NCBI GenBank assembly: GCA_964581555.1
Contig: CAZOOY010000001.1
Span: forward strand, 1 to 54,580
DNA length: 54,580 nucleotides
Direction: 5' to 3'
From: an uncultured Staphylococcus sp.
GTDB lineage: Bacteria; Bacteroidota; Bacteroidia; Bacteroidales; Muribaculaceae
Shown: positions 6,417 to 51,511 of the stretch, in pieces
How positions within the stretch are numbered: the first letter of the stretch is position 1
How the letters are laid out: each line of letters opens with the position of its first letter
Made by a program: the position numbers and the translations under genes
The notes under the pieces: generated by a model
Database searches by the model: none
What the model was told of the DNA's origin: nothing
Seen by the model: only the letters and a program-made list of their open reading frames with translations

Positions 6417-6485
6417 CAAATATAGGTTATAGAAGTTTCAGGGGCTTTCAAATTTATCCCAATTTGAATATATTTTTATTCCAAA
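6417..6485 (-). promoter_or_regulatory. susCD promoter: -7 box plus candidate HTCS-binding motif
   Basis: Minus strand TATATTTG (6417-6424). 21 nt away, plus-strand TTTCAAATTTATCCCAAT, with TTTATTCCAA repeating TTTATCCCAA at a 22-nt offset. Confidence 0.65.
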
Positions 6486-6577
6486 GGTATAAAAAATTTT
6501 CCTATCAACCCTAAACACCAATTTAATTACCTGATATCCTGACTATTATCCACGTTGATTAATTTGTAAAATCGCGC

Positions 6578-12331: not shown

Positions 12332-12380
12332 CAAAAATAGGCCGGAATTACCCGGCCCATATTTCAGAATTTCACCAAAT
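12332..12380 (-). promoter_or_regulatory. Promoter of the PL8-SMP30-GH105-PL6 unit: -7 box plus candidate HTCS motif
   Basis: Minus strand TATTTTTG (12332-12339). Plus-strand TTTCAGAATTTCACCAAAT lies 22 nt away. Confidence 0.6.
12333..12358 (-). terminator. Terminator-like hairpin overlapping the PL8 promoter
   Basis: Minus strand GGCCGG-gtaatt-CCGGCC-TATTTTT, just downstream of the six-hairpin gene stop. Confidence 0.55.
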
Positions 12381-12390
12381 ACTATAAGAT

Positions 12391-14424
12391 TTATTTCTTG
12401 GGAAGAGAAATCTTCAATGTTTCCCCTTCCTTGACTTTCTTATGGATCAAGGTCTTATCGTCACGCACGATTTTAACATCAAGTTTGTCTGCACCGGCGC
12501 GGGTCACGTCGATATCGAAATCGTCACCAAATGCACGGATATTGCGGAGATTGGCGTAATCCCAGTCCTTCGGGAGGCGCGGAGTGAGATCGAAACTTGA
12601 GAAACCTGTTGGACGGATCCCGAAAAGGCCCTCGGTGAAGATGCGGCAGTAAAGTCCGCTTTCAGCCGAAAGATGTCGCTGGTCTCCTTCCGGCCACGCT
12701 TCGATGGCATAAGGGACATGGTCGCCCAAAAGACGATGGCGTGAGTACTGCTTGAGGAAATCCATCCCTTTCTCGACCTCTCCGGCTGCAAGAGTGCCAC
12801 GAAGCGCATAAAGCGTGGAGCGATCCCAGAATGTCTCGGTCCCGGCCTGAGTGAGGCATCCGTCGTTGGTCCAGAGACGCGGTGAGAAGAGAGCATCAAT
12901 CGTACCCTTTGCGCGGTCAAAGATTCCCATCGTGAGGGGTATGCATATCCATGACCGGAGCACATCGTTTCCCTCATAATAGCGGTAACTGTGGTAGCCC
13001 TCTATCTCGTAACCGAAGTGATTTTCAATTGCTTTACGGAGTTCGGCAGCCTGCTTCCTATAGCCGTCAAGTTGTTTGCGGGACACTCCGAGTTCTTTCC
13101 CGAGATAAGAGGCGGATATAAGCGCGTCATAATAGAGACATGAAGTTGCGAGATTGGCGTCGCCGGAGGGGAAACGGTTCTCAAGCTCATCTGAATCGGA
13201 AGCCACCACACCTGCGGGAGTGAGTTTACGTCTGCAGTATTCGAGACACCATTCAATCAGTGGCCAGAGTTCGCGGGCTTCCTCTTTGTCAGCCCGTGCA
13301 AGTGCATAGCGGGAAGCTCCGTAGGCTATCATCGCACCGTCTCCACGATCCTTTGCTCCATGCCAGAAGCTCACTCCTTCCGAGATAATTGAACTTGGGA
13401 TCGGGTTATAATCATCGTTCATATAACGGGCGAAGTGACGATAGCAATTGAGCGAAGACTGATTGCCGATCTCATAACCGAGATAAGGGAAGAACGGACA
13501 GATATACTCGGCCTGATCGTTGGCCCACACGGCAGCATAGTAAGCCTCGCCACCGGGACCATGCATGAGACCGCCCTTGGTATTGTAGATACTCTCCGCG
13601 CCACGGAGTTTCGCAAAAGAGAACATGGTGTTGAGCACCGAGTCGGGAGTCTCAAGAATGAGATTATTCTTCCACTCCTTTATGAGTGCCTTCCTGCCAT
13701 CACGCTGGGCGTCCAGATTGGGACGGCGACCGACAGGATCTCCTGACTTGCGTCCGGAATAAATTACATTGATATCAAAAGTCTCACCGGGTTTCACTTC
13801 AAACACTCCGTTCTTCGAGAGGGAGGCCTCGACTGTATATGAGCCGTAGACTCCTGCCTCCTCCGGTGTGACATATTTCACATTCCACTCAGGGACTCGG
13901 AATGTGATGGGCTGCTGCATATTGTTTGTGAAGCTATATTCCTCACAATAGAATGCACCGTTGGGCGAGGGATAAAGCACGCGCTTCAATGTGACCGCGT
14001 CTTCGATCTTCTTCCTGCGGTAAGTGTGACTGAATGAGCTCTCCACCGTCATGGTTCCGTCAAAGTTGATCGACTTCACCTTTTCATCGGCAAGATTAAG
14101 ATCGTCTATTGTTATTAGGGCAGGGATATTTACGTCAAAACGCTGTTTCAGATTGTTCTGGGTCTTGTTGGGCTTCATGCGGAGCATCGGGAAGACCAGA
14201 CTGCGGTTGAGATGGAATGCACCTTTGTCATCCACCCCATAGCGGAGTACGACCGACATCTGCTGGCCGCTCATCTCAATATGATCGGAGTGAGCCTTGT
14301 CACCCGGTTTGACAGTCCATGTGATATCACCGTCTTTGCCTATGCTCCAGCGATCGGTGGCATTGGCGACTCCGATGCTCAGTGTGCAAAGAAGGAGTGC
14401 CGTTGTGATGAAGTTCTTTATCAT
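12391..14424 (-). CDS. Secreted six-hairpin (alpha/alpha)6 glycosidase-like protein, family not assignable
   Basis: Signal peptide, beta-rich N-domain, LETPDSVLNTMF linker, acidic motifs VWANDQAEY, DSDELE and YAIEAWPEG, and a GLFGIRP...PRLPKDW C-terminal strand typical of six-hairpin GHs. Confidence 0.7.
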   Translation of the reverse strand: MIKNFITTALLLCTLSIGVANATDRWSIGKDGDITWTVKPGDKAHSDHIEMSGQQMSVVLRYGVDDKGAFHLNRSLVFPMLRMKPNKTQNNLKQRFDVNIPALITIDDLNLADEKVKSINFDGTMTVESSFSHTYRRKKIEDAVTLKRVLYPSPNGAFYCEEYSFTNNMQQPITFRVPEWNVKYVTPEEAGVYGSYTVEASLSKNGVFEVKPGETFDINVIYSGRKSGDPVGRRPNLDAQRDGRKALIKEWKNNLILETPDSVLNTMFSFAKLRGAESIYNTKGGLMHGPGGEAYYAAVWANDQAEYICPFFPYLGYEIGNQSSLNCYRHFARYMNDDYNPIPSSIISEGVSFWHGAKDRGDGAMIAYGASRYALARADKEEARELWPLIEWCLEYCRRKLTPAGVVASDSDELENRFPSGDANLATSCLYYDALISASYLGKELGVSRKQLDGYRKQAAELRKAIENHFGYEIEGYHSYRYYEGNDVLRSWICIPLTMGIFDRAKGTIDALFSPRLWTNDGCLTQAGTETFWDRSTLYALRGTLAAGEVEKGMDFLKQYSRHRLLGDHVPYAIEAWPEGDQRHLSAESGLYCRIFTEGLFGIRPTGFSSFDLTPRLPKDWDYANLRNIRAFGDDFDIDVTRAGADKLDVKIVRDDKTLIHKKVKEGETLKISLPKK

Positions 14425-23772: not shown

Positions 23773-25731
23773 TTATTTTACCTCCTTGACAAGTCCTATG
23801 CTGTGGATGCGGTTACCTCGGCGCCCGGGCATCTCCATCTGGAGCTGAGATTTTCCTTTCTTGAGATTTACGGGGAAATAGTATTCACGGGGAGTGTTAC
23901 CGATCGAAGTCAGCCAACCATAATTCTCGGTAGCTTTCTCTCCATTGATGAAAATAAAAGCGGGAGCGGGATCACTGCCTGTGTAGACCGTCTTCAGGAG
24001 ATAAGTGCCGCTCTCGGGCACTTCAACCGTCCAGGTTGCAAGATTGCGGGCCTTGCTCCGTTCACCCGAAAGGGCCAGATGGCCGTTCTCATTGATGATA
24101 AATGTGCCCTCAGTCACAGCCTGCGAGGGAGTGTAATTATTCACATCATTTACGACCTTGACTACCATATCCTGACGAGCCTGCTTCCCATCTTTTCCTT
24201 TCACTTCAAGGGAATACGAGGTAGTGCGCGAGGGACTGACAGTGAGGGTGCCCTTAGCGGCAACTTTCTTGCCATTTAGTTTCACCTCTTCCCCATTGGA
24301 TGCCTCCCAACTGATCTGCGCTTTACCGCCCTTGTTGATGACATAACGATCGGAATAGAATGACTCAACAGCCGGGCGATCAGCATCAAGGGGAACGCGA
24401 TAGAGTTCGATACCGTCACCGGTGCCGAGATTACGGCTATACTGACGGTCATCCGGATTATTCCAATGCTCATGCACTCCGAGACTCTTCAACCCGGCAT
24501 TGACATATCTTGTTCCGGAAGGTGGATTGCCGATATTTGCAGCTTCGTGAAGAAAATTGTCAGCATTTGCGGTCAGAGGCAGCTCGGAAAAGATGAAATC
24601 AAGGACGACCGACTCGATCGCAACCGGGTCATTGGATGCAAGGAAACTTGAAGTCCAGCCGTCATTGAAAGGAGCACGCTTGAATTTCACGGCCTTGCCG
24701 TTATGCTTGGGATTGACATACATTGCATCCACAATATACACAAGAGTGTTTTCTCCTAACTTCTCATGAGCCATAAGGTCGACGATACAGTTATAGGTAC
24801 CCATACCTCTTTTACCTGACCAGTCACGGATAGAATAGTGCAGCGGCGGAACATTGGCTATCGACCCGAACTGGTTCTTACCGGTACACGTGATTCCTGT
24901 CTGTCCGGCTCCGTTGCTCCACTTGTCGGTGGGCTGTGAGTGACGCTTCATCAGAGCCATATTGATCATATAGTCCGCGTCGTAAGCCGCCTTTGCAAGA
25001 CTACGCGCACCCGGATCGGTGATCTCGCTTGAATATGTGATCGCATCCGGGACAAACCCGCCCCAGTTCTGATAATTCACATTGGGATACAGAGGCTCGA
25101 CATAAGTGTAGACGGCAGAAATACCGCGTCGCTGCGCGTCATAGACGGTTATATCCTCCTGAGGGACCCCTACGATATCAACGAGCTGATGCAGAAGTGC
25201 GACGACCGACTGAGGAGTCGCATCAATAATGTTCGATCCTCCGTTGTCATTGAGATTGATCTTGACGGCGACCTTCTCTCCGGGCTTATAGCCGACGGCA
25301 CCCTTTCCCTTCCTTTCATTGAAAGTCCGGAAAAGCTGATCCCATGCTTCGGAGGGAGTGGAGCCTGTTGTAAGAGACATTATGACACCTTCCATCATAT
25401 CATCCACTCGGGTCTGGCTGTTATTGTCGGCATCCGAGTAGAGCCCATGCTCCCCGTCCCAGGCTGCGGCTTTGGGGTCGTGAGCCCACGCCACTCGTCC
25501 GGGGTGTATACCGCGGGCTATACCCATGGGAGAATTGGGGAGGTCCGTCGGGACGAAAGAACCCATATCGGTGTTAAGATCATCCTTGTCGGTCTGCTGA
25601 GCTGATACAGTAAACCCCGGCGCCCAATAGGCGCCGAGGGTCAGAACTCCGGCCAACGATAAATGCCTGTATATTCTATGTAATCTTCCGAGGGAAAGAT
25701 TACCTGCTCCGGTATTAGTAGTTTTTTTCAC
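23773..25731 (-). CDS. Secreted DUF362-domain protein with C-terminal Ig-like and CBM6/CBM35-like modules
   Basis: GTG start and long signal peptide. DUF362 motifs GEKVAVKIN, ADYMINMALMKRH, GITCTGKNQFG, ASNDPVAIE. C-terminal beta-sandwich pattern ATWTVEVPESGTY...VNLKKG. Confidence 0.75.
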   Translation of the reverse strand: MKKTTNTGAGNLSLGRLHRIYRHLSLAGVLTLGAYWAPGFTVSAQQTDKDDLNTDMGSFVPTDLPNSPMGIARGIHPGRVAWAHDPKAAAWDGEHGLYSDADNNSQTRVDDMMEGVIMSLTTGSTPSEAWDQLFRTFNERKGKGAVGYKPGEKVAVKINLNDNGGSNIIDATPQSVVALLHQLVDIVGVPQEDITVYDAQRRGISAVYTYVEPLYPNVNYQNWGGFVPDAITYSSEITDPGARSLAKAAYDADYMINMALMKRHSQPTDKWSNGAGQTGITCTGKNQFGSIANVPPLHYSIRDWSGKRGMGTYNCIVDLMAHEKLGENTLVYIVDAMYVNPKHNGKAVKFKRAPFNDGWTSSFLASNDPVAIESVVLDFIFSELPLTANADNFLHEAANIGNPPSGTRYVNAGLKSLGVHEHWNNPDDRQYSRNLGTGDGIELYRVPLDADRPAVESFYSDRYVINKGGKAQISWEASNGEEVKLNGKKVAAKGTLTVSPSRTTSYSLEVKGKDGKQARQDMVVKVVNDVNNYTPSQAVTEGTFIINENGHLALSGERSKARNLATWTVEVPESGTYLLKTVYTGSDPAPAFIFINGEKATENYGWLTSIGNTPREYYFPVNLKKGKSQLQMEMPGRRGNRIHSIGLVKEVK

Positions 25732-25771: not shown

Positions 25772-25840
25772 CAAAGATAAAATCAATATACAACATGGAT
25801 TTAAACTATTATTCCATTTGTTTCAATTTTTATATCAAAA
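25772..25840 (-). promoter_or_regulatory. Promoter of the DUF362-GH28-GH97-GH31-GH36-GH27-six-hairpin unit: -7 box plus candidate HTCS repeat
   Basis: Minus strand TATCTTTG (25772-25779). 20 nt away, plus-strand TTTAAACTATTATTCCATTT-g-TTTCAATTTTTATATCAAAA (21-nt period). Confidence 0.6.
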
Positions 25841-25876: not shown

Positions 25877-28800
25877 TTATCTTTTCACATAGATCAATTC
25901 TATCCCTTCATTCTCTCCGAGATTACGGCTGTACTGCTTATCGGAAGGGTTGTTCCAGTGCTCGAGCACACCAAGACTTTTCAGTGCTGTCCCGTCTCCT
26001 TCAGGGTCGTAGGTTGTACCGGAAGGAGGATTTCCGGCAAGAGCGGCCTCCACGAGATACATGTCACAATAGTCCACATCCGCCATCGCGGGAAACTCGG
26101 ATGAAAGGAAATCTATCCCAACTGCATCAATGGCCACCCCATCCTGAGAGCCGAAAAGTGAGCAAGGCCAGTCACGGTTGAATGGAGCCATCTTCCATTT
26201 CCCTGAGGGAGCACCATTGACATCCATTGATCCATACAGACCGTCGATCAGGAAAAGCATGGTTTTTCCTCCGAGATCCTTATGGCCCATGTAGTCTGTG
26301 AAGGTCATATAGCGTGGACGGCCGGTGCGGCTCTGGTTGAAATTGTTGTGCTGGTTTTTGCGGAAGTTTCGGTTGATATCTGTCGCACCATACCAATTTT
26401 TTGCACAAAGTGTCACGCCCTGTCCTCCATGTCCTTTCAGAAGTGCAACATTTATAAGATAGTCTGCATCGATCACACAGTTTGCCAGTCCGCGGGCAAG
26501 TTTACCGTTGTCACTGCTGTAAGTGATGGCATCTTCTGTATATGTTGCTTTCTCGCGACCCTCGGTTCCTTCATTATCTACGTAATGTACGTTCGGAAAC
26601 TCTTCATGACATTTTTTATAAAGTGCATCGGTCATGAAACGGCTTGCATCAAAGAGAGTAATGGCATCCTGAGGTACACCTCCTTCGTTCACGAGGCTTC
26701 GGAGAAGAGAAAGTGTGAGATGGGGAGAGGCATTGATCTGTTCGTTGTCAGCATATTCGAAGGTATTATTGAGATTAAGCTTCACAGCAATTTTCTCACC
26801 CTTTTTGTACCCTCTTTTCTTGCGACCGGTACGCTTGTTGAAATCATTGAACAGCGCGTTCCAGGCCTCAGCTTGTGAAAGTTCTCCGGTAAGAGTCGTG
26901 AGGACATCGGCTACCATTCCGTCTGTCGCTTCCTGACTGTTCCACTTGTCCTCATACCATCTTCCTTCGCCGGGGATCCAGCGTGCTGCACCGGGAGCAT
27001 GGCTCCATGCCACACGTCCGGGATGGATACCTCTCCCCTTTCCCACGGGATGATTCTTACCCCATGCCATACGGGGTTCGGATTGACCGGCTACATTCAA
27101 GTCGATATTCTTACTCCTGACCACTCCAACAGGTTCACGGCGATTTTCATTGGGAGCTACTTCCAGATCAATCACTTTTGCTCCGAAAACATCATCAAAA
27201 TAAACAGCATATCTACCATCCTTGGTCTCGGCCTCTATCCGACAATCGTTCATCCCGACATTTCTGGCGTGACGGAACCAATAGCCATAGGCGGGCTGGA
27301 TTTTCATATCGACCACATTATAGCGGCCCACACCTATCTCCGGCGGAACGGCATCAGCGTCGGCAGCCGGATGACCGCCCTTTACCGTCATATTCACATC
27401 ATTGAACACTATATTCTCGATATAACCTGTGTGGCGCCCGTCAGGAAGAGTGAAGTCGAGTCCACCTTCCACAGCTTCTGTGTCAGGGAGCTTGAATCCT
27501 GCTATTATAGCCGATGCTTCTGTCTGAGTGCCGTCATACGGTTTCCAGCGCTCTTTCTTGAAAGAGGATCCACCATAAACCTCCGAGATATCCACACCAT
27601 TAATAAATATATTCTCCACACGCCCGATATTTGAATTTGTGACAAGAAGCTCTTCACGCTTGCCACCGTTCTCCTCGAAAGAATACTTTTTCACGTCGGC
27701 ACCTATCACACGTCCACGATTAGAGATAGAGATAAAGAATGGCGCACGCGTACGCTTCATTTTTGAGCGAGAATGTATCGGTCCTGTCTTTCCGCTATTC
27801 AGATAGACGTTGGAGATACATGCCCCGTCATTAGTGGAAATCGAGAATCCGGCCTTATTGGCACCGAGCACATATATATTGTCTATGTACAGATCCTTGA
27901 TGTCATCAGCGGTCTCGGACCCGATCTGGAATAAGTTGCAGTTGGTATCACCGACAATGTTACGCACGAGATAATTGGAGACGGGGCGGGTGAATCCGAG
28001 CGAACAGTCCGAACCGGGTTTGACTATGTCATCCGAACAAACTTTGGAATAGATATTATAGGCTCTCACATCATTGCATCCCATGAAATCATATATATCG
28101 CGGGCATTGGATACATCATGTTTTCCGAAATATGTGTCATGAACATATATACCGTCAGTGCCTGTTGCAAGAAGCACAAAATGTCCACCCTGGTCAATGT
28201 GAAGCATTCCCGGCTCACCGAAAATCTTTTTTTCACCGTCAATATAATATGGCTCATCCTTCTCCTCGTCATACCACATGTCGCGGTCACTCTCTATACC
28301 TCCTATCTCGATATCCTTGCAGAGCTTGAAGGTGAACATCTTGTCCGAGCGACGATGAGGCTCGTTATTCATTACCTTATCGGTGGTGATGAGATTTCCG
28401 TTACCTGTGATACGTCCCGTGCCGACTATCTTCACATTCTCCACCCTTTCGCCATGGAACATGGTATTATGGAAGAAAGTGTGACCGACGTCCTGCTTCG
28501 TCAGATAGTTTTCAGGATCCTTATATGGTCCGGGATCCGTTGGCGAGAGACCCGACCGGTAACCGCGGTCACTGAACCAGGTTGTCTCCGGTGCGTCACC
28601 ACCTGGGAGAGCCTTTATGACTGCTGCACTGTCAACATGAAGCCACACATTGCTGCGCATGTGAAGTGTGCGCACAGGGAATTCCCCTTTGCCGAAGCGG
28701 ATCACTCCGCCCCCGAGATCAGCGGCATATTGGATAAGAGTATTGAGAGCATCGGTATCATCCGTCACTCCATCACCCTTCGCTCCATATTTCTTCGGAT

Positions 28801-29911
28801 CAAACTGTCCTGAATAGAACCATGCGATATTCGAATCTCCTTTCGACTTACCATCTTTGACACGGAGTTTGAAAGCATATAGTCTGTCAGGCGCGAGTTT
28901 ATTGATGAGAAGATTTCCATCCTCTGCTTCCAACCTCATGGTAGAAACAGGCTGCCAGTTCTTCCCTTTATCAACAGAGCAAAGCACCTCGATCTTGTCC
29001 GTATCACAGAGAGGAGTCCACGAAAACGCCGCCCATGTGAATTCCTGATTGTCCCGATAGCCACCGCGTCTCATAGGCTCGCGTGCAAAGTCAGCAATTG
29101 TATTGACACCCTTTAATGTCACCTTCGCCACAGGGCTTACGAGTTCTTCCGGCTCCGCTACACTGTAACGCCCGGTTATCACATAGTCTCCCTCCTGTGG
29201 AAGGCAGACACCTTTCATGACCACACGGACATCAGTGCCGTTATCAGGCCGGAGATCCAGACCGCTCAGACGAAGCAGTCTCCCGCCGGGAATATTTGTC
29301 ACCCTACACTCTCCAACTTTATTATAAGAGTAGTGCGTTCCCGTCCTGCCTATGGACTGACTTGAAAGATTGCGTCCGACAACAGCTCCGCGACCTATCA
29401 CATCAACAGTGATATTATCGGGCGTTATGTCGATACCCTCCGGCACCGTTATCTCTACGACAGAATTAGGCGTACGCTGTCCGGCTTTGAAATCAAGAAC
29501 GACATCGGATGAGACACCGACTCTCGCCAATGGATTTCTGAGACTGAGTTCCGGCATCAAAGCCTCGCGTCTTACGCTCACGGGATATTCTTTTATCATC
29601 CTTCCGGAAGCTGAAAGTTTCTGCAAGCGGTCACCCTCAACAGGGACCTCACTACGCGCACGTTCAGTTCCGGACGATGTCACGACACGGAAATGTCCTT
29701 CTCCCGAGAATGCGTCCAGCATATCTCCTACTTTCGGTGCTGTCGAAGTCAAGCCCTCACCTTCCGGAGTATCCACCGTATATCTATAAGTGGAGCCGGT
29801 GCTGACGAGAAGCGAGTCACCTTCTATCCGGCAATTATTTCCTGCAGCATGTGTCAGAGTGACAATCTGCGCAAGCAGACAGAAAATCGTAAATCTTTTC
29901 TTACCATTCAT
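25877..29911 (-). CDS. 1344-aa secreted multidomain protein: Ig/FN3-like domains, GH28-like beta-helix and C-terminal DUF362
   Basis: Signal peptide; FN3-like [13 protein letters not shown]; [30 protein letters not shown]. The last ~400 aa are paralogous to 23773..25731 ([40 protein letters not shown]). Confidence 0.8.
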
Positions 29912-35502: not shown

Positions 35503-37374
35503 TCAGAATCGCCACTCAACTCCTGCCATAAAGGTAGCGCGTGGCATGGGAAATCCATCATATATCTCATATCTCGCGGCCGTCAGATTCTCCCCCTTGA
35601 CGAAAATGATGAGAGGACGGCGGAAATCAAACTTATATGCTGCGCGGGCATTGAGCAGGAAATAGCTCTCAGCTTTCGTTTCCGTATTCAGATGTGAGAT
35701 GCCGAGTCCGTCGAGGGTCAACTCCCAGTTGCCGGGCGTAAATGCAACCTCCCCGAATATCTTGTGACGTGGAGCCGCGACGAGCCTGCGATTGGAGTGC
35801 AGATAGGCATAATTGGCCGTCACATTCCATTTATCATTAATTGTATAAGAAGCATCGAGTTCAAATCCTTTATTGATAAACTTCCCCGTATTTACATTCT
35901 TCTGTGCACCATCCACCATAACTGTCTGAATGAGATTCATCCCGTCAATGTAATAGAGTGCTATACCTAAGTTCAATCGACTGTCCAGACACCATTGGCG
36001 GAATTCTACTTCGTAATTGTCCATCGATTCCGGTTCCAGCTCAGGATTTCGTGCCGCATACATGTAAAGCTCCTTTATGTTGGGTGAACGGAAACCTTTT
36101 GCATAGTTGAACTTGACGCGATTGAATCTCATCGGACGAACCACGAATCCGGCCTGAGGAACCCACTGATTGCCAAATTGGGAGGAATGCTCCAATCTGA
36201 CCCCTGCATTCAGGCTCAACCTGTTCTCCAGAAGTGCTTGTTGCATCATGGCATAACCGGCTATTTCATTGACATGCCTGTCACAGATCGGGGTTTCCTT
36301 TCCGTCGGCTTTTGCAGAGTTCCATGCCTCACCGCCCCAGTGCTTGAAATCAGCCCCGACACTGAGATGATTACCCGTCCACGGGCGTAACGTCTGATAC
36401 AGAGTGACACCCATGTTGTAATCCTTGGAATTGAAAAGATAGTCGCGAGGTTTGCCGTTCTTCAGTCCATCGTCGATCTTATGCTTTCCCCAATTATAAT
36501 ATGCCTGGATGCCACCCGAGGTTTTATCATAACGGTTTTTTACGAAAACCGAGGTCGTTGTCCGAAGCATCCTCGTCCACATGTCAAGAGGAAGTGCAAG
36601 GTCAACTGATCCGGGATTCTCCGCACGGGTTTCGGTCAGCATTACATTTGCGCCCGCTTCCCAGTGAGAGGAAAAACTGTAGGAGAGGGAAGCAAACTGA
36701 TTGGCCAGCCAATATCCCATACCCCGTCGGCTCCCGTCGGTAGATTCATAGCTTGCCGCGCCAAACGCACGCAGTCCTCCTTTCCTGTATCCTGCCCTCG
36801 CTCCATACTTCTGAGTGCCGTAACTTCCGGCAGAGGCTTTGACACTCCCCTCGATTCCTTCTTTTTCTGCCCGGCGTGTGATAAGATTCACCGATCCTCC
36901 CATCGCCCCTGATCCGTAGAGGAGAGATGACGGACCGCTAACAACCTCTACTTTACTGATATCGTTGGTGACATAGGTGTCAGGGAGAGAGTGACCGAAC
37001 ACTCCGGCCCATTGAGGTTGCCCGTCGATCATGAAAAGCACTTTGTTTCCACCACCGACACCGCGGATGCTCACATTCCCTGCTGCTCCTCCACTCACTC
37101 CATATCCTGCGAGACCGCGCTCAGTGACGAACATGCCCGGGATGCGGTTCTGAAGCACGGGAAGAAGATTTGACTCAGTACTTCTTTCAATAATCCCCCC
37201 TCCGATCACCTTCACATCAAGAGGAAGAAGCTGGACGGGTGCTTTAGCAGCCCGCTCAAGCACCATGACTTCACCGAGCACCGTAGTCGTGTCCGTCGCT
37301 ACGCGTGTCTGTGCCCCCTGAACACAGGTGAACGGTGAGAGAAGTAGCGAAATTACAAAAAGTGTCTTTTTCAT
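35503..37374 (-). CDS. Classical (non-SusC) TonB-dependent receptor, BtuB/CirA-like size
   Basis: TonB-box-like LGEVMV, plug motifs SIRG, MIDGQP and VEVVSGPSSLLYGSGAMGGSVNLIT, GFRSP..ELY, NPELEPE, terminal Phe. 623 aa with no SusD partner. Confidence 0.9.
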   Translation of the reverse strand: MKKTLFVISLLLSPFTCVQGAQTRVATDTTTVLGEVMVLERAAKAPVQLLPLDVKVIGGGIIERSTESNLLPVLQNRIPGMFVTERGLAGYGVSGGAAGNVSIRGVGGGNKVLFMIDGQPQWAGVFGHSLPDTYVTNDISKVEVVSGPSSLLYGSGAMGGSVNLITRRAEKEGIEGSVKASAGSYGTQKYGARAGYRKGGLRAFGAASYESTDGSRRGMGYWLANQFASLSYSFSSHWEAGANVMLTETRAENPGSVDLALPLDMWTRMLRTTTSVFVKNRYDKTSGGIQAYYNWGKHKIDDGLKNGKPRDYLFNSKDYNMGVTLYQTLRPWTGNHLSVGADFKHWGGEAWNSAKADGKETPICDRHVNEIAGYAMMQQALLENRLSLNAGVRLEHSSQFGNQWVPQAGFVVRPMRFNRVKFNYAKGFRSPNIKELYMYAARNPELEPESMDNYEVEFRQWCLDSRLNLGIALYYIDGMNLIQTVMVDGAQKNVNTGKFINKGFELDASYTINDKWNVTANYAYLHSNRRLVAAPRHKIFGEVAFTPGNWELTLDGLGISHLNTETKAESYFLLNARAAYKFDFRRPLIIFVKGENLTAARYEIYDGFPMPRATFMAGVEWRF

Positions 37375-43676: not shown

Positions 43677-43745
43677 CAAAGTTAGCTTCGCGGTCAAAAA
43701 ATGAGTTTCAGAATTATTTCAAATGTTTCAGATATTTTCCCAAAT
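43677..43745 (-). promoter_or_regulatory. Promoter of the GH88-led unit: -7 box plus the clearest direct repeat (candidate HTCS site)
   Basis: Minus strand TAACTTTG (43677-43684). 21 nt away, plus-strand TTTCAGAATTATTTCAAAT-g-TTTCAGATATTTTCCCAAAT (20-nt period). Confidence 0.75.
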
Positions 43746-45770: not shown

Positions 45771-46133
45771 TTAATGATGGTTTGATGTCGAATTTCGGAT
45801 GCGATCCGCGTACTCTGATGGAGAGCAGCCGTAGACGGCCCTGAAACACTGTGTGAAATAAGCCGGACTGTTGAATCCGACATGTGTCGAGACCTCCGAG
45901 ACGGAATGAGACTCATCTCTAAGCATTCGTGCCGCTTTCTCAAGACGTAGTTTCCTTATCAGCTCTTTAGGTGTGAGTGGGGTGATACACTTCAACTTCC
46001 TATAGAGATCGGTGCGACTGCACCCTGTCTCCCGGCATATCAAGTCGATATCGAGATAGGGATTGGAAATATTCTCCTCGATCACACGGAAGAATCTATC
46101 CTTGAATAATTCGGTTGAAGTCCTTTGGTCCAT
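45771..46133 (-). CDS. Stand-alone AraC-type HTH protein, paralog of the DNA-binding domain of the neighbouring HTCS
   Basis: Intact 120-aa ORF. 69/99 identical residues by ungapped manual alignment to the HTCS C-terminus. No receiver or sensor domain. Confidence 0.92.
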   Translation of the reverse strand: MDQRTSTELFKDRFFRVIEENISNPYLDIDLICRETGCSRTDLYRKLKCITPLTPKELIRKLRLEKAARMLRDESHSVSEVSTHVGFNSPAYFTQCFRAVYGCSPSEYADRIRNSTSNHH

Positions 46134-46145
46134 GACACATCAATG

Positions 46146-46187
46146 AAAAAGCACCGCGAAGATAGAGCAAATCTCCGCGGTGCTTTT
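46146..46187 (-). terminator. Intrinsic terminator hairpin just upstream of the AraC gene
   Basis: Minus strand GCACCGCGGAGAT-ttgctct-ATCTTCGCGGTGC-TTTTT. The single mismatch is a G-U pair only in the minus-strand RNA. Confidence 0.75.
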
Positions 46188-46225
46188 CCAATAATGTTTC
46201 AACTTCTTTCAATATCGGTCTAACT
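46157..46225 (-). promoter_or_regulatory. Candidate promoter of the AraC-GH105/propeller unit with HTCS-type repeat
   Basis: Variant -7 box TATCTTCG (46157-46164). 20 nt away, plus-strand TTTCCAATAATGTTTCAACT-tc-TTTCAATATCGGTCTAACT. Confidence 0.5.
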
Positions 46226-46240
46226 GAGAGTAATCTTATT

Positions 46241-46450
46241 TCAGCGACTGAATTTCTTCAACCATTCCGCTATATATTGAGCCGTTTCATTGGCCGTCTT
46301 GGTAAAACCGTGGTCTTCCCCCTCCACCGGTTTCAACTCGGCTTTCGGCATCACTTCCGAAGAACGGATGGCATAATTGTAGGGAACCACCGTATCGTGT
46401 GTGCCGTTGAGGACAAGAGTATGACCTGTATATTTATGTGCGGTCCGATA
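46241..46450 (-). pseudogene. 3' remnant of an alpha/beta-hydrolase (esterase) gene
   Basis: Manual translation: YRTAHKYTGHTLVLNGTHDTVVPYNYAIRSSEVMPKAELKPVEGEDHGFTKTANETAQYIAEWLKKFSR*. It has catalytic Asp (GTHDTVVP) and His (GEDHGF) motifs but no start codon or GxSxG, and an in-frame TAA upstream near 46532. Confidence 0.8.
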
Positions 46451-47419: not shown

Positions 47420-50400
47420 TCAGGCAGACTCTCCCTTCTCCTTTGCTACATACTCTGAAGGCGAGCACCCGTAGGTAGATTTAAAACATTGCGTGAAGTA
47501 AGCGTGACTGTTGAAACCCACATAGGTTGAGATCTCCGAGACGGAATAGTCTGACTCGCGGAGCAGACGGGTTGCCACTTCAAGACGTTTGTTCCTTATC
47601 AGCTCCACGGGTGAAAGATCGGTGATGGCTTTCAGTTTCCTGTAGAGATTGGTTCGGCTCAAGCCCACCTCCCGGCAAATCATGTCGATATTCAGATCGG
47701 GATTCGAGATATTGTCCTCGATGACCTGGAAGAACTTCTGGGTGAACTTGTCCTCCGCAGAGACAATCTTGATGCCGAGCGACTCAAGTGAGAACTTCTT
47801 GCCGTAAAGCTTCTTCAACTTCTCGCGTGCCACAAGAATGTTACGCATGCGATAGATGAGAACATCCATGCTGAATGGCTTGACGATATAATCATCCGCT
47901 CCCGACGAGAATCCCTCCTTGATGTGCATCACCATACAGCGGGCCGTCATGAGAATGACAGGGATATGCTCTGTGCGAAGGTCGTTCTTGATCTGCGAGC
48001 AGAGTTCCAGACCATCCTTGCGTGGCATCATCACGTCACTCACGATTATATCTGGGTACTTTTCGACAGCGAGATCAAAGGCAGTCTCCCCATTGTCTGC
48101 CTCGATGACGTCAAAATAGGGCAACAGACATTCCTTGACATAATTGCGCACCTCCTCGTTATCCTCGGCGAGAAGTACGGTGTAGCGTCGGTCAAGTCCC
48201 GGTGTCTCAGGGGCCGGCGAAGGGATGACATCGACAACCACACGGTCTGCCGCCTCTTTGTCAAACTCATCCTCCGAGAATGCCTCGCGGTCAACTGGAA
48301 GAATGACATGGAACACCGCGCCTCCCTCAGGATTGTTCTCGGCCCAGATAACTCCGTGATGCAAAGCGACGATCATCTTCGTCAGGCTCAGACCGATACC
48401 TGTACCGCTTGCGTCTTTGGGCTGCCCCTCCTCCACCTGGTAGAAAGGATCAAATATTCTCACGAGATCCTCGGCAGGAATACCGCGGCCCGTATCGCTC
48501 ACCGAAATATGAACAAGTCTATGATCGGATCCCTTCAACTCCTCAATGTCCGTTCGCCCCTCCGGAGTCGCGGCAGGAAGCGTAGTGTCAAGTGACATGA
48601 CAACACTGTCGCCCGGGCGGGTGAACTTGAATGCATTGGAAAGCAGATTGAACAACACCTTGTCACAGACACTCTTGTCAAACCATCCGGGCAGACGCTC
48701 TTCATCACAGCGGAACTCGAAGTGGATATCTTTCCCGTTGGCAAGATGATTGAACGCACAGTACATCTCCTGCATGAATGACACCATATCCTCCTTGGAC
48801 ACTTTGAGCTTCATCTTGCCGGACTGGCTTTTACGCAGATCCATGAGCTGGTTGACGAGGATGAGCATGCGCTGGGAATTGTTGTAGATAAGGCTCAACT
48901 TATTCTTCACCCCATGATTGAAATCAGTGTGGTGAAGCAACTCTTCCAGTGGAGAGAGGATGAGAGTGAGAGGTGTGCGGAGCTCGTGAGAGAAGTTGGT
49001 GAACATCTGGAGCTTCGACCTGTGGAACTCCTCGGCACGCTCCTGTTCCTTGCGCTGATAGGCCACACGCTGCTCGAGCGCTTTCTTCTTGACAATATAG
49101 TAACCGATGAGGAAGATGGTCCCGAAAAAGAGAATGGCATACAGAGTCCAGGCATACCACGTTGCCCAGATGGGCGAGCGGACTATAATGGTCAGCGAGC
49201 GGGGGTCATCGTTCCAGATCCCGTCATTGTTGGCGGCTTTGACTTCAAATGTGTATTTTCCCGGTTTGAGATTGGTATAGTAGGCCGAATGACGGGAACC
49301 GACGTCATGCCACTCGTCATCATATCCTATCATCCTTACGGCATAAGTGTTGTGTGAGGGATTGACATAGTTGAGCGCGGCATAACTGATTGTGATATTG
49401 TTCTGATTATATGCCAGTTCGATGCGCGGAGTGCTGTCAAGTTCCTTCTCGAGTATTCCCCCCTCTTCAGGGCGTATTTCCTTATTGTTCACCTCCAGGC
49501 CGGTGAAAACGACCGGAGGACGATAAGTGTTCAATTGCATTGACGAGGGACTGAAGGTCACGAATCCCTTGGCAGTGCTGAATCCTATGCGCCCGTCGCT
49601 GAGCAACGTGCCGCTGTGAGGCGTGAACTCCTGGGCTCCCGTACCGCTTCCGATCCGATAATTATGTATCTCATCACTCTCCGGATCGTAAGAGGTGATA
49701 TTATTGCTCGTGCTCAGCCACAGTCGGCCGAACTCATCCTCGACAGTCATGCAGATATCTTCATCACCAAGACCATCCGCCTTGGTGATACTTTTGATGA
49801 TACCTTTCCCATCCTCATAGAGACTGATACCTCCGCCGAATGTTCCGACCCACACCCGGCCCTTGTGATCACGCGTGAGGGAAGTGACATAGTTGGCAGG
49901 AAGATATCGGGCTCCCTTTCCGTTGGAATCAAAGACCTCATACTTTTTCCTTATGGTGTCATAACGATATAGACCGTTGTTGCTCGAGCCAATGAGCAGG
50001 ATACCCGGGGAAACTTCAAGAATACATCGTCCGCTCCCCGGACGCCAGATGGTATCTCCTATCTCAAAGCGGGTCTGCATCTGCCCTTCGGTGGAAACAC
50101 GGATAAGGCCCATGGATGGCTTCGAGACAACAGTCCATAGACTTCCGTCATGCCCCCGGATGATTCCGTAGACCGAACCGGAGACGGGAAGAGTATGGGC
50201 AAGAGAAAACCGCCGGCTATTACGATCAAAGAGATAGATGGTCCCGTTGTTCGTGCCACACCAGATCCTGTCCCCCTCCAGGAGGAGAGATTTGATGATG
50301 TTGTGGCTGTCGGAGGGATCGTAAAGGAAACGTGTCGAATGACCGGTCTCCTTATCGTACTCCAGCAGACCCCCACCCTCTGTGGCGACATACAGTTTTC

Positions 50401-51511
50401 CGTCAGGAGTATCCGTTATCGGGCCAAAGACACCGGCTATGTTGCCTGACTCACCTATCGACGGTTCATGTACCACGAAACGATTATTGTGGCGGCTGTA
50501 ATAGTCGGCACCTCCGGAGTAGGACCCGACCCACAGGCCTCCGCTGCGATCCACACAGAGGGAATAGATGGAAAAGTGGCTTAGCGTACCCTGCGACTTC
50601 TGGGCGCGGGAATGACGTGACAGTCTTCCCGTAGCTGTCTCTATCGAGAAAAGACCGTCAAAAGTTCCCACGACGAGATTGCCGTCGTTGAGGGCGAGGC
50701 AGCGGATATTGTCGGTGGAGAGAGGAGAATTTTCCTTATTATATATTTTGGCTGTTCCCGTCCGGTGATTGAGACAGGAGAGACCGCCATCCGAAGTGGC
50801 CACCCAGACATTGCCATTGTCCTTATTGACGAGAATATCGGCCACGCTTTTACCCGGCACGAAAGAATCCTCCCTGTAATGCGCCAACTTCTTGAACGCA
50901 GGATCAGTCACAAATAGCCCCTTGTCAACCGTTCCGATCAGAAGTCTGCCGTCAGCGCTCTCATTCAGAGCCGTCACCGAGACGTTGTCGAGCTCCCCGT
51001 TGAGAGTGATCGCCTTTTCAGACCTTGTTTTCGGGTCAAAGAGATATAGTCCGCGTTGTGTTCCTACCCACAGATTCCCACGGGAATCGATCATAAGGGA
51101 TCTCACACTTGATCCAAGCCATGGGAAATCGGCAGCAGGGAATGAAGTGATATGGCCGGAATTAGTATCGAGGCAACTCAGCCCCTTTCCGGTACCTATC
51201 CAGAGATTCCCGTCGCCATCCTCCGTGATAGCCGTTATCTGACGATCCACAAGTGAACGGTCGCTCCCCTCCCGGTCTGGCTTAAACACGGTAATCGTGT
51301 TGCCGTCATACTTATTCAGGCCGTTTCTCGTCCCGAACCAGATAAACCCCTTGGAGTCCTGATAGATCTTCATGACCGACATCTGCGAGAGGCCATCCTC
51401 AAGTCCGATGTTGGAGAATCGGCTTGCCTCCTGGGCATAGCCGTGTAGCCCCGAAGTCAGGAAGAGAAGAAAGATTAGGATAGGAAGAGAGAGCTGAGAT
51501 AAATATTTCAT
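47420..51511 (-). CDS. Hybrid two-component system sensor-regulator (HTCS)
   Basis: Reg_prop propeller repeats (IWFGT, LWIGT), Y_Y_Y domain (YTNLKPGKYTFEVKA), TM helix, HisKA SHELRTPLTLI, HATPase NLLSNAFKF/GTGIGL, REC SDVMMP, C-terminal AraC HTH. Confidence 0.97.
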   Translation of the reverse strand: MKYLSQLSLPILIFLLFLTSGLHGYAQEASRFSNIGLEDGLSQMSVMKIYQDSKGFIWFGTRNGLNKYDGNTITVFKPDREGSDRSLVDRQITAITEDGDGNLWIGTGKGLSCLDTNSGHITSFPAADFPWLGSSVRSLMIDSRGNLWVGTQRGLYLFDPKTRSEKAITLNGELDNVSVTALNESADGRLLIGTVDKGLFVTDPAFKKLAHYREDSFVPGKSVADILVNKDNGNVWVATSDGGLSCLNHRTGTAKIYNKENSPLSTDNIRCLALNDGNLVVGTFDGLFSIETATGRLSRHSRAQKSQGTLSHFSIYSLCVDRSGGLWVGSYSGGADYYSRHNNRFVVHEPSIGESGNIAGVFGPITDTPDGKLYVATEGGGLLEYDKETGHSTRFLYDPSDSHNIIKSLLLEGDRIWCGTNNGTIYLFDRNSRRFSLAHTLPVSGSVYGIIRGHDGSLWTVVSKPSMGLIRVSTEGQMQTRFEIGDTIWRPGSGRCILEVSPGILLIGSSNNGLYRYDTIRKKYEVFDSNGKGARYLPANYVTSLTRDHKGRVWVGTFGGGISLYEDGKGIIKSITKADGLGDEDICMTVEDEFGRLWLSTSNNITSYDPESDEIHNYRIGSGTGAQEFTPHSGTLLSDGRIGFSTAKGFVTFSPSSMQLNTYRPPVVFTGLEVNNKEIRPEEGGILEKELDSTPRIELAYNQNNITISYAALNYVNPSHNTYAVRMIGYDDEWHDVGSRHSAYYTNLKPGKYTFEVKAANNDGIWNDDPRSLTIIVRSPIWATWYAWTLYAILFFGTIFLIGYYIVKKKALEQRVAYQRKEQERAEEFHRSKLQMFTNFSHELRTPLTLILSPLEELLHHTDFNHGVKNKLSLIYNNSQRMLILVNQLMDLRKSQSGKMKLKVSKEDMVSFMQEMYCAFNHLANGKDIHFEFRCDEERLPGWFDKSVCDKVLFNLLSNAFKFTRPGDSVVMSLDTTLPAATPEGRTDIEELKGSDHRLVHISVSDTGRGIPAEDLVRIFDPFYQVEEGQPKDASGTGIGLSLTKMIVALHHGVIWAENNPEGGAVFHVILPVDREAFSEDEFDKEAADRVVVDVIPSPAPETPGLDRRYTVLLAEDNEEVRNYVKECLLPYFDVIEADNGETAFDLAVEKYPDIIVSDVMMPRKDGLELCSQIKNDLRTEHIPVILMTARCMVMHIKEGFSSGADDYIVKPFSMDVLIYRMRNILVAREKLKKLYGKKFSLESLGIKIVSAEDKFTQKFFQVIEDNISNPDLNIDMICREVGLSRTNLYRKLKAITDLSPVELIRNKRLEVATRLLRESDYSVSEISTYVGFNSHAYFTQCFKSTYGCSPSEYVAKEKGESA

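Follow-up and report, generated by a model that had tools for sequence, protein, structure and literature searches.

Both solo AraC domains (MarA, SoxS) and a paralogue that dampens a PUL (BT4124) are already known. MarA, SoxS, and RamA are proteins of about 110 to 130 amino acids (aa) that consist of a double HTH only and stand alone without a sensor. In PUL75 of B. thetaiotaomicron, BT4124 is described as having a DNA-binding domain paralogous to that of BT4111, as sharing predicted sites with it, and as dampening the PUL (PMC3878776, PMC13292587). BT4124 is itself a complete membrane-bound HTCS that has a sensor of its own, and an engineered derivative, BT4124R-AD, is reported to be soluble and monomeric and to bind tandem sites (about 21 bp apart) independently of phosphorylation. 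Among the Bacteroidota, the ESM Atlas holds short AraC-only clusters (106 to 119 aa, HTH_18 only, feature score 0.95 to 0.97); some of these may be HTCS fragments at contig ends, and given such clusters, the bare architecture has precedent in the phylum.

Here we analyzed a stretch of 54,580 nucleotides (the window) in which a 120-aa AraC ORF (45771..46133, minus strand), referred to below as the solo, lies close to an HTCS. Like MarA, SoxS, and RamA, the solo has the same fold, is predicted to be a monomer, and would be controlled through its own expression. However, it is just 21 to 30% identical to these proteins, far below its match to the HTCS, and is not kin to their subfamily. Whereas they are conserved global regulators, the solo is a rare copy nested in one local HTCS clade and, unlike them, sits under the likely operator of its parent HTCS. 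It differs from BT4124 in having no sensor, kinase, or receiver. The behavior reported for BT4124R-AD is that proposed for the solo, but BT4124R-AD is a laboratory construct that retains the receiver domain, and the solo would be its natural, evolved counterpart. A natural copy of a DNA-binding domain alone, under its parent's own operator, was not found in the open-access literature searched.

The window is one entire contig of a 1.9-Mb genome assembly that is 64% complete. It holds one PUL of about 45 to 50 kb, in which Pfam matches identified susC and susD genes, one HTCS, PL6, PL8, alginate-lyase-family, and four PF07470 (GH88/GH105-type) enzyme genes, as well as GH2, GH27, GH28, GH29, GH31, GH36, GH95, and GH97 (GH numbers were in part taken from Pfam names). 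The parent HTCS (1,363 aa; 47420..51511, minus strand), identified by BLASTP and Pfam, has its DNA-binding domain at about 47444-47734. It formed a one-member cluster whose nearest full-length relative was 75% identical (P0220 cluster); its close relatives are named Duncaniella sp. at NCBI, which makes the host a probable member of the Muribaculaceae, and the host lineage is thinly sampled. The receiver domain of this HTCS clade has EHIP or GHIP where the latch motif S/CHIP is expected, so the clade may use the nonconsensus regulation described in PMC11253607. Elsewhere in the PUL, a 623-aa TonB-dependent receptor (35503-37374, minus strand), much shorter than SusC, is kept at this place in G046, G047, G061, and G062, and is followed by a 530-aa gene without a Pfam match. 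Two DUF362 proteins (25877-29911 and 23773-25731), one of which is 1,344 aa long and carries a fused pectate-lyase-like part, are 70 to 80% conserved in related PULs, as is a protein of 677 aa without a Pfam match (12391-14424).

The original prediction of an intact 120-aa ORF with its own ATG, consisting only of an AraC HTH pair, was borne out. The frame has zero internal stops, a stop codon lies two codons 5′ of the ATG (122-aa open frame), and HTH_18 and HTH_AraC were the only Pfam matches. Against HTH_18 (PF12833) the solo scored 78.1 bits (curated cut-off, 33.6), compared to 74 bits for the parent HTCS. An AlphaFold model showed seven helices in the AraC double-HTH fold (pLDDT 89), and Foldseek matched this model to AraC-family chains (TM about 0.75 to 0.8). 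The solo does not fit the definition of a hybrid two-component protein, its 120-aa chain containing no sensor, kinase, or receiver. BLASTP aligned it with the parent HTCS without gaps over residues 10 to 117 (69/108 identities, E = 3e-47), and all 69 identities fall within residues 10 to 108, which reproduces the predicted ungapped identity of 69/99 to the HTCS C terminus. In its own genome, the adjacent HTCS was the best AraC match (64%), followed by one at 42% (8 other hits in the 64%-complete assembly). The predicted pI is 7.8 for the solo versus 5.8 for the HTCS domain. At the DNA level, the solo and the HTCS are 74% identical across 288 nucleotides (nt); this identity, with saturated third positions, ruled out an assembly echo of the HTCS. 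A contig chimera is possible.

Similarity to the neighboring HTCS was specific. Identity of the solo was 55 to 69% to this HTCS clade (65% for the adjacent HTCS lineage) but at most 45% to other HTCS in 58 congeners, contrary to the concern raised beforehand that the solo might be equally similar to unrelated HTCS. The codon tree was best with the solo sister to its own HTCS (lnL = −1650.0, versus −1653.1 and −1658.7 for the alternatives, compared by likelihood values rather than a formal topology test). These comparisons place the origin of the solo in this HTCS clade, as a partial duplicate of the DNA-binding domain of the neighboring HTCS.

The surroundings of the solo indicate where this copy came to rest. 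The orthologous HTCS was present in 13 relatives (8 of 57 congeners and, in a second genus, 5 of 31 genomes), and GH105 lies directly behind it in nine of them (G046, G047, G061, G062, G018, G410, G440, G156, and G307); in G045 this place is taken by GH88, the arrangement differs in G008 and G060, and G296 had no match. The 90 nt 5′ of the solo can be aligned to the spacer between HTCS and GH105 in G046 and G062; in this alignment, the ATG of the solo coincides with that of their GH105. Since the DNA upstream of the solo is the ancestral HTCS-to-GH105 promoter, the solo was placed between this promoter and GH105. The GH88/GH105-type hydrolase gene (PF07470; 43748..45766, minus strand) starts 4 nt past the solo stop, and the two are likely on one transcript. 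Because the ancestral promoter is upstream of the solo rather than downstream, the solo is not the stump of the original HTCS. Two further elements now stand between the HTCS and the ancestral promoter: a 3′ fragment without a start (46241..46450, minus strand), presumably alpha/beta-hydrolase-like judging from its motifs, which is 45% identical to a G000:C16 gene (E = 2e-16) that looks intact, and an inositol monophosphatase (IMPase) family gene (PF00459; 46564..47376, plus strand) that is not at this place in relatives. The IMPase gene has varied neighbors among its 8 close homologues; its identity is about 70% to the homologues of 8 congeners without this HTCS and only 45 to 51% where the HTCS is present, and host and PUL may, on these sequences, have different histories. 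Tandem duplication would fit as the route to the solo, but the promoter remnant expected in the solo tail, suggested by an alignment, was not significant (P = 0.22 versus shuffles, 0.13 versus random windows).

A copy of the PUL promoter motif had been predicted ahead of the solo. We lined up promoters by anchoring on the TAnnTT(T/C)G element, whereupon a shared A/T-rich repeat emerged in the relatives and in the window; a sigma-70 promoter scan was set aside because it does not fit this phylum. With an operator matrix trained only on 13 promoters from five relatives, the candidate operator before the solo (46186..46216, minus strand), homologous to the GH105 promoter of relatives, ranked second of 109,034 positions in the window (23.4 bits), in agreement with that prediction. 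The best candidate (25.6 bits) lies before the GH88 gene (43706..43736, minus strand; −7 element starting at 43684), and the third strong one before the DUF362 gene (25800..25831, minus strand; 21.3 bits in one register and 16.2 in the adjacent one). Five promoters had been proposed; these three sites are strong, whereas those before PL8 (12361..12391, minus strand; 11.1 bits, with a correctly spaced −7 element) and susC (6446..6498, minus strand; 14.3 and 7.9 bits) are only weak. Across the rest of the genome (3.67 million positions), 3 positions reached 15 bits, the best at 17.7. The −7 promoter element of the solo, TATCTTCG (46157..46164, minus strand), is spaced from the operator just as its counterparts in the other PUL promoters are, and is the same in G047, G061, and G062. 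The solo thus has a candidate repeat at the fixed distance from a −7 element; the −7 consensus is given as TAnnTTTG (PMC7366714), and HTCS sites have been predicted to be direct repeats about 21 bp apart (PMC3878776). Position and conservation together suggest that this HTCS binds the motif.

Folding identified a hairpin between the operator and the solo ATG (46144..46189, minus strand; −40.9 kcal/mol, z = −9.5, 0 of 200 shuffles equally good), and its 3′ arm contains the −7 element. The insulating terminator of the original prediction is therefore a real hairpin but not a dedicated insulator: it is an inherited, terminator-like HTCS stem combined with a promoter, and it is present in relatives without a solo. 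When relatives were each folded singly, similar stems of different sequence were found at the same place in G046, G047, G061, G062, G410, G440, G156, and G307, with a weaker one in G018. A transcript that starts just past the −7 element is without the 5′ arm and remains unfolded (0.0 kcal/mol), so the hairpin would block upstream read-through yet spare this promoter. In addition, a long inverted repeat wraps the GH105 promoter in the window (46131-46200) and in G046, G047, G061, G062, G440, G307, and G156: an inverted copy of the operator's right half lies just 5′ of the start codon and, although its sequence varies, has been retained in two genera. This repeat could serve as another binding site, downstream of the first, or lengthen the terminator stem.

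The predicted solo leader is about 20 nt, and the commonest leader reported in B. thetaiotaomicron is 23 nt (PMC7366714). The start itself has no A at −3 and −6, and an out-of-frame ATG lies 8 nt upstream. By the start-context rule reported in PMC7366714, the solo has A at one favored position and GH105 at four, so low translation of the solo is predicted. The GH105 starts of relatives likewise have no A at −3.

The solo is old. Across 97 codons, the solo and its own HTCS differ with pS = 0.60 and pN = 0.19, compared to pS = 0.61 to 0.84 and pN = 0.05 to 0.07 between HTCS orthologues and the same HTCS; synonymous sites are near saturation. In a codon model of nine sequences, dN/dS was 0.195 on the solo branch (interval wide, about 0.06 to 0.77) and 0.013 elsewhere, i.e., 15 times background, with both neutrality (P = 0.029) and the background rate (P = 0.001) rejected; four HTCS control branches gave 0.005 to 0.029. 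We also simulated neutral evolution by mutating the HTCS domain until its protein distance equaled that of the solo, with the present-day HTCS used in place of the ancestor. Only 1 of 35 family-core positions is changed in the solo (L70M), versus a mean of 10.6 in the simulations (0 of 1,500 as low). The solo profile score exceeded all 1,500 simulations in three reference sets (14, 57, and 71 domains), which were largely retrieved with the solo as the query (the 57-domain set wholly, the loci of the 14-domain set partly). The open frame survived in 26% of neutral runs, and an intact frame alone is thus weak evidence. Neutral evolution, which had been anticipated for a duplication relic, does not fit the spared core positions and a dN/dS of about 0.2; selection on the solo fold at some stage of its history is well supported by these sequence comparisons.

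Absence from relatives had also been anticipated for a relic, and here the expectation held: the solo was not found in any of the 13 relatives with the orthologous HTCS. It was not found in 57 congeners, where among the matches listed every other one lay in a frame of at least 371 aa, nor in 400 family genomes, 31 genomes of the second genus, or 400 order genomes (at most the best 11 candidates per genome in the large searches). A second family draw returned essentially the genomes of the first and was thus not independent. The 110 matches in 211 loci contained no short frame save the solo itself and the broken HTCS of G296. A word-based protein search at lengths near that of the solo gave 2 candidates, neither of which scored, and a genome-contig scan with the HTCS C terminus, which covered 2 of 64 parts, gave mainly generic response regulators and is uninformative on solos. 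In G018:C6 (L002) and G296:C36 (L139), the orthologous HTCS gene is either split or broken, and the 371-aa frame of G018 and the 180-aa frame of G296, considered as solos, proved to be these broken HTCS genes.

A full HMMER search did, however, return one comparable protein, P0009 (113 aa, 55% identical to the solo), located on two short Logan contigs and with a Met of its own at the corresponding position. The solo and P0009 jointly depart from the clade at 14 positions and have the same residue at 7 of these (3.4 expected, P = 0.03); Y26, T36, and K56, common to both, each occur in at most 2% of 93 outgroup domains. The two group together at 99/95, but both are long branches, and AU tests did not reject separate origins (P = 0.16 to 0.20); on sequence, P0009 may share the origin of the solo. 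A metagenome scan with the solo-P0009 alignment found relatives in 3 of 595 stretches, all of them HTCS. In a search at longer lengths, none of the best 120 of 157 matches was more than 69% identical to the solo, and inspection of 35 clade proteins among them revealed no long protein with the solo's residues.

These data bear on whether the solo is a decaying gene, once selected, perhaps inside a longer paralogue, and now a passenger in the GH105 leader that yields little or no protein. Its occurrence in one genome, its weak start context, and the broken hydrolase fragment beside it would fit such a history, as would the share of neutral runs that stay open and the codon model's rejection of neutrality only at P = 0.029. 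The spared core positions do not fit it, nor does the result for the 35 clade proteins inspected; P0009, moreover, is likewise short and starts at the same place. We consider decay unlikely.

The DNA-binding surface combines conservation with change. In an alignment of 47 HTCS rows from the clade (among them the HTCS of this genome and some duplicate rows), 46 positions were invariant, and the solo deviates at 7 of them, including N42D and H90P, which involve both recognition helices. The recognition helices had been predicted to be nearly unchanged; the segments quoted were correct, but these two changes fall at positions invariant in 47 of 47 rows. By analogy with MarA, position 90 would be a base contact and position 42 a backbone contact. 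T41, Y44, and R45 of the solo are unchanged and match, through an alignment with SoxS, W42, Q45, and R46 of MarA, the reported base-contact residues of a protein in which helix 3 contributes more to specificity (PMC3315485). P90 is the consensus of the wider family (63% of 93 outgroup domains), and H90P may hence be a lost contact rather than a gained one. The N42D and H90P changes weaken the case for binding at the same operators; judged from sequence, binding at the same sites as the HTCS is plausible and probably looser.

Changes at such residues could alternatively mean that the HTCS induces a solo of altered specificity, which then regulates other genes, much as SoxR acts through SoxS. 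Both N42D and H90P affect clade-invariant helix residues, and P0009 likewise has P90, along with additional changes in its helices. Given the unchanged helix-3 triad and the status of P90 as family consensus, we regard a relay of this kind as quite unlikely.

The explanation that we tentatively favor is that the solo is an HTCS-induced, latch-free, weakly binding monomer that competes with the HTCS dimer and dampens the PUL. The HTCS would activate the promoter ahead of the solo, which would be translated at a low level from its short leader. In HTCS, the receiver domain is reported to bury a recognition helix, blocking DNA binding until phosphorylation, and a broken latch to allow DNA binding without phosphorylation (PMC11253607). 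Having no receiver domain, the solo would be unlatched by construction and never latched off. With helix-3 base contacts kept and N42D and H90P changed, it would bind half-sites more loosely, and as a monomer on half of a tandem site it would hinder the HTCS dimer more than activate. Expressed from an HTCS-driven promoter, it would rise in level after induction and then compete at HTCS sites. The soluble, unlatched BT4124 fragment is described as monomeric, as protecting tandem half-sites, and as lowering PUL mRNA in cells that retain the paralogue BT4111, the main activator (PMC13292587). The authors of that report note that the fragment cannot dimerize. They read BT4124 as a native repressor, so the fragment result need not extend to the solo.

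Several observations are consistent with such a brake: the placement of the solo behind a candidate PUL operator, the spared core positions, the branch dN/dS of about 0.2, an HTH_18 score above that of the HTCS, and the unchanged T41, Y44, and R45. Moreover, if an activator independent of phosphorylation lay under a promoter that it targets itself, the PUL could become locked on. Against a brake stand the failure to find the solo in the 13 HTCS relatives or in the family and order samples, the wide dN/dS interval, the changes at 7 of 46 clade-invariant positions, the weak start context, and the fact that solo AraC domains such as MarA are activators. This last point raises the converse reading, in which the solo binds the same operators, activates like MarA and SoxS, and boosts or prolongs PUL expression as an amplifier or memory element. 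MarA, a monomeric solo AraC domain, is reported both to activate and to repress (PMC3315485); the operators end beside the −33 region, where a bound domain could contact RNA polymerase, and the selection evidence is the same as for a brake. Yet signal-free self-activation would be prone to persist, needless PUL expression is reported to be costly (PMC11253607), and the lone soluble, unlatched HTCS fragment described as tested in cells lowered expression (PMC13292587), all of which makes an amplifier improbable in our view. The solo might instead act through contact with protein, namely by occupying the receiver domain of the HTCS, which would free the tethered DNA-binding domain. The BT4124 crystal is described as a domain-swapped dimer, the DNA-binding domain of one chain lying on the receiver of the other (PMC13292587). 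However, the clade latch is nonconsensus (EHIP/GHIP), and by our mapping the solo appears to have lost the matching acidic residue (E to T); we hold this last alternative to be very improbable.

PUL shut-off and tuning are little explained beyond signal removal and phosphatase activity. If the brake is real, having a latch-free HTCS output domain under the operator of that HTCS would amount to a new and simple form of feedback. The solo shows a route by which solo AraC regulators can be born from a sensor protein, and it is a natural test in cells of an untethered HTCS domain, for which engineered fragments have been used so far. The weight of the finding is limited because the solo was seen in one genome. 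More broadly, it is possible, though doubtful, that the HTCS shed its DNA-binding domain as a sensor-free feedback brake under its own operator, giving rise to a small family (the solo and P0009) and perhaps doing so recurrently (P0056). P0056 (116 aa) and P0088 (136 aa), two other short proteins with AraC domains only, resemble this HTCS family and are possible independent solos; P0056, located on a contig of 3.9 kb, has retained the NSHAYF motif.
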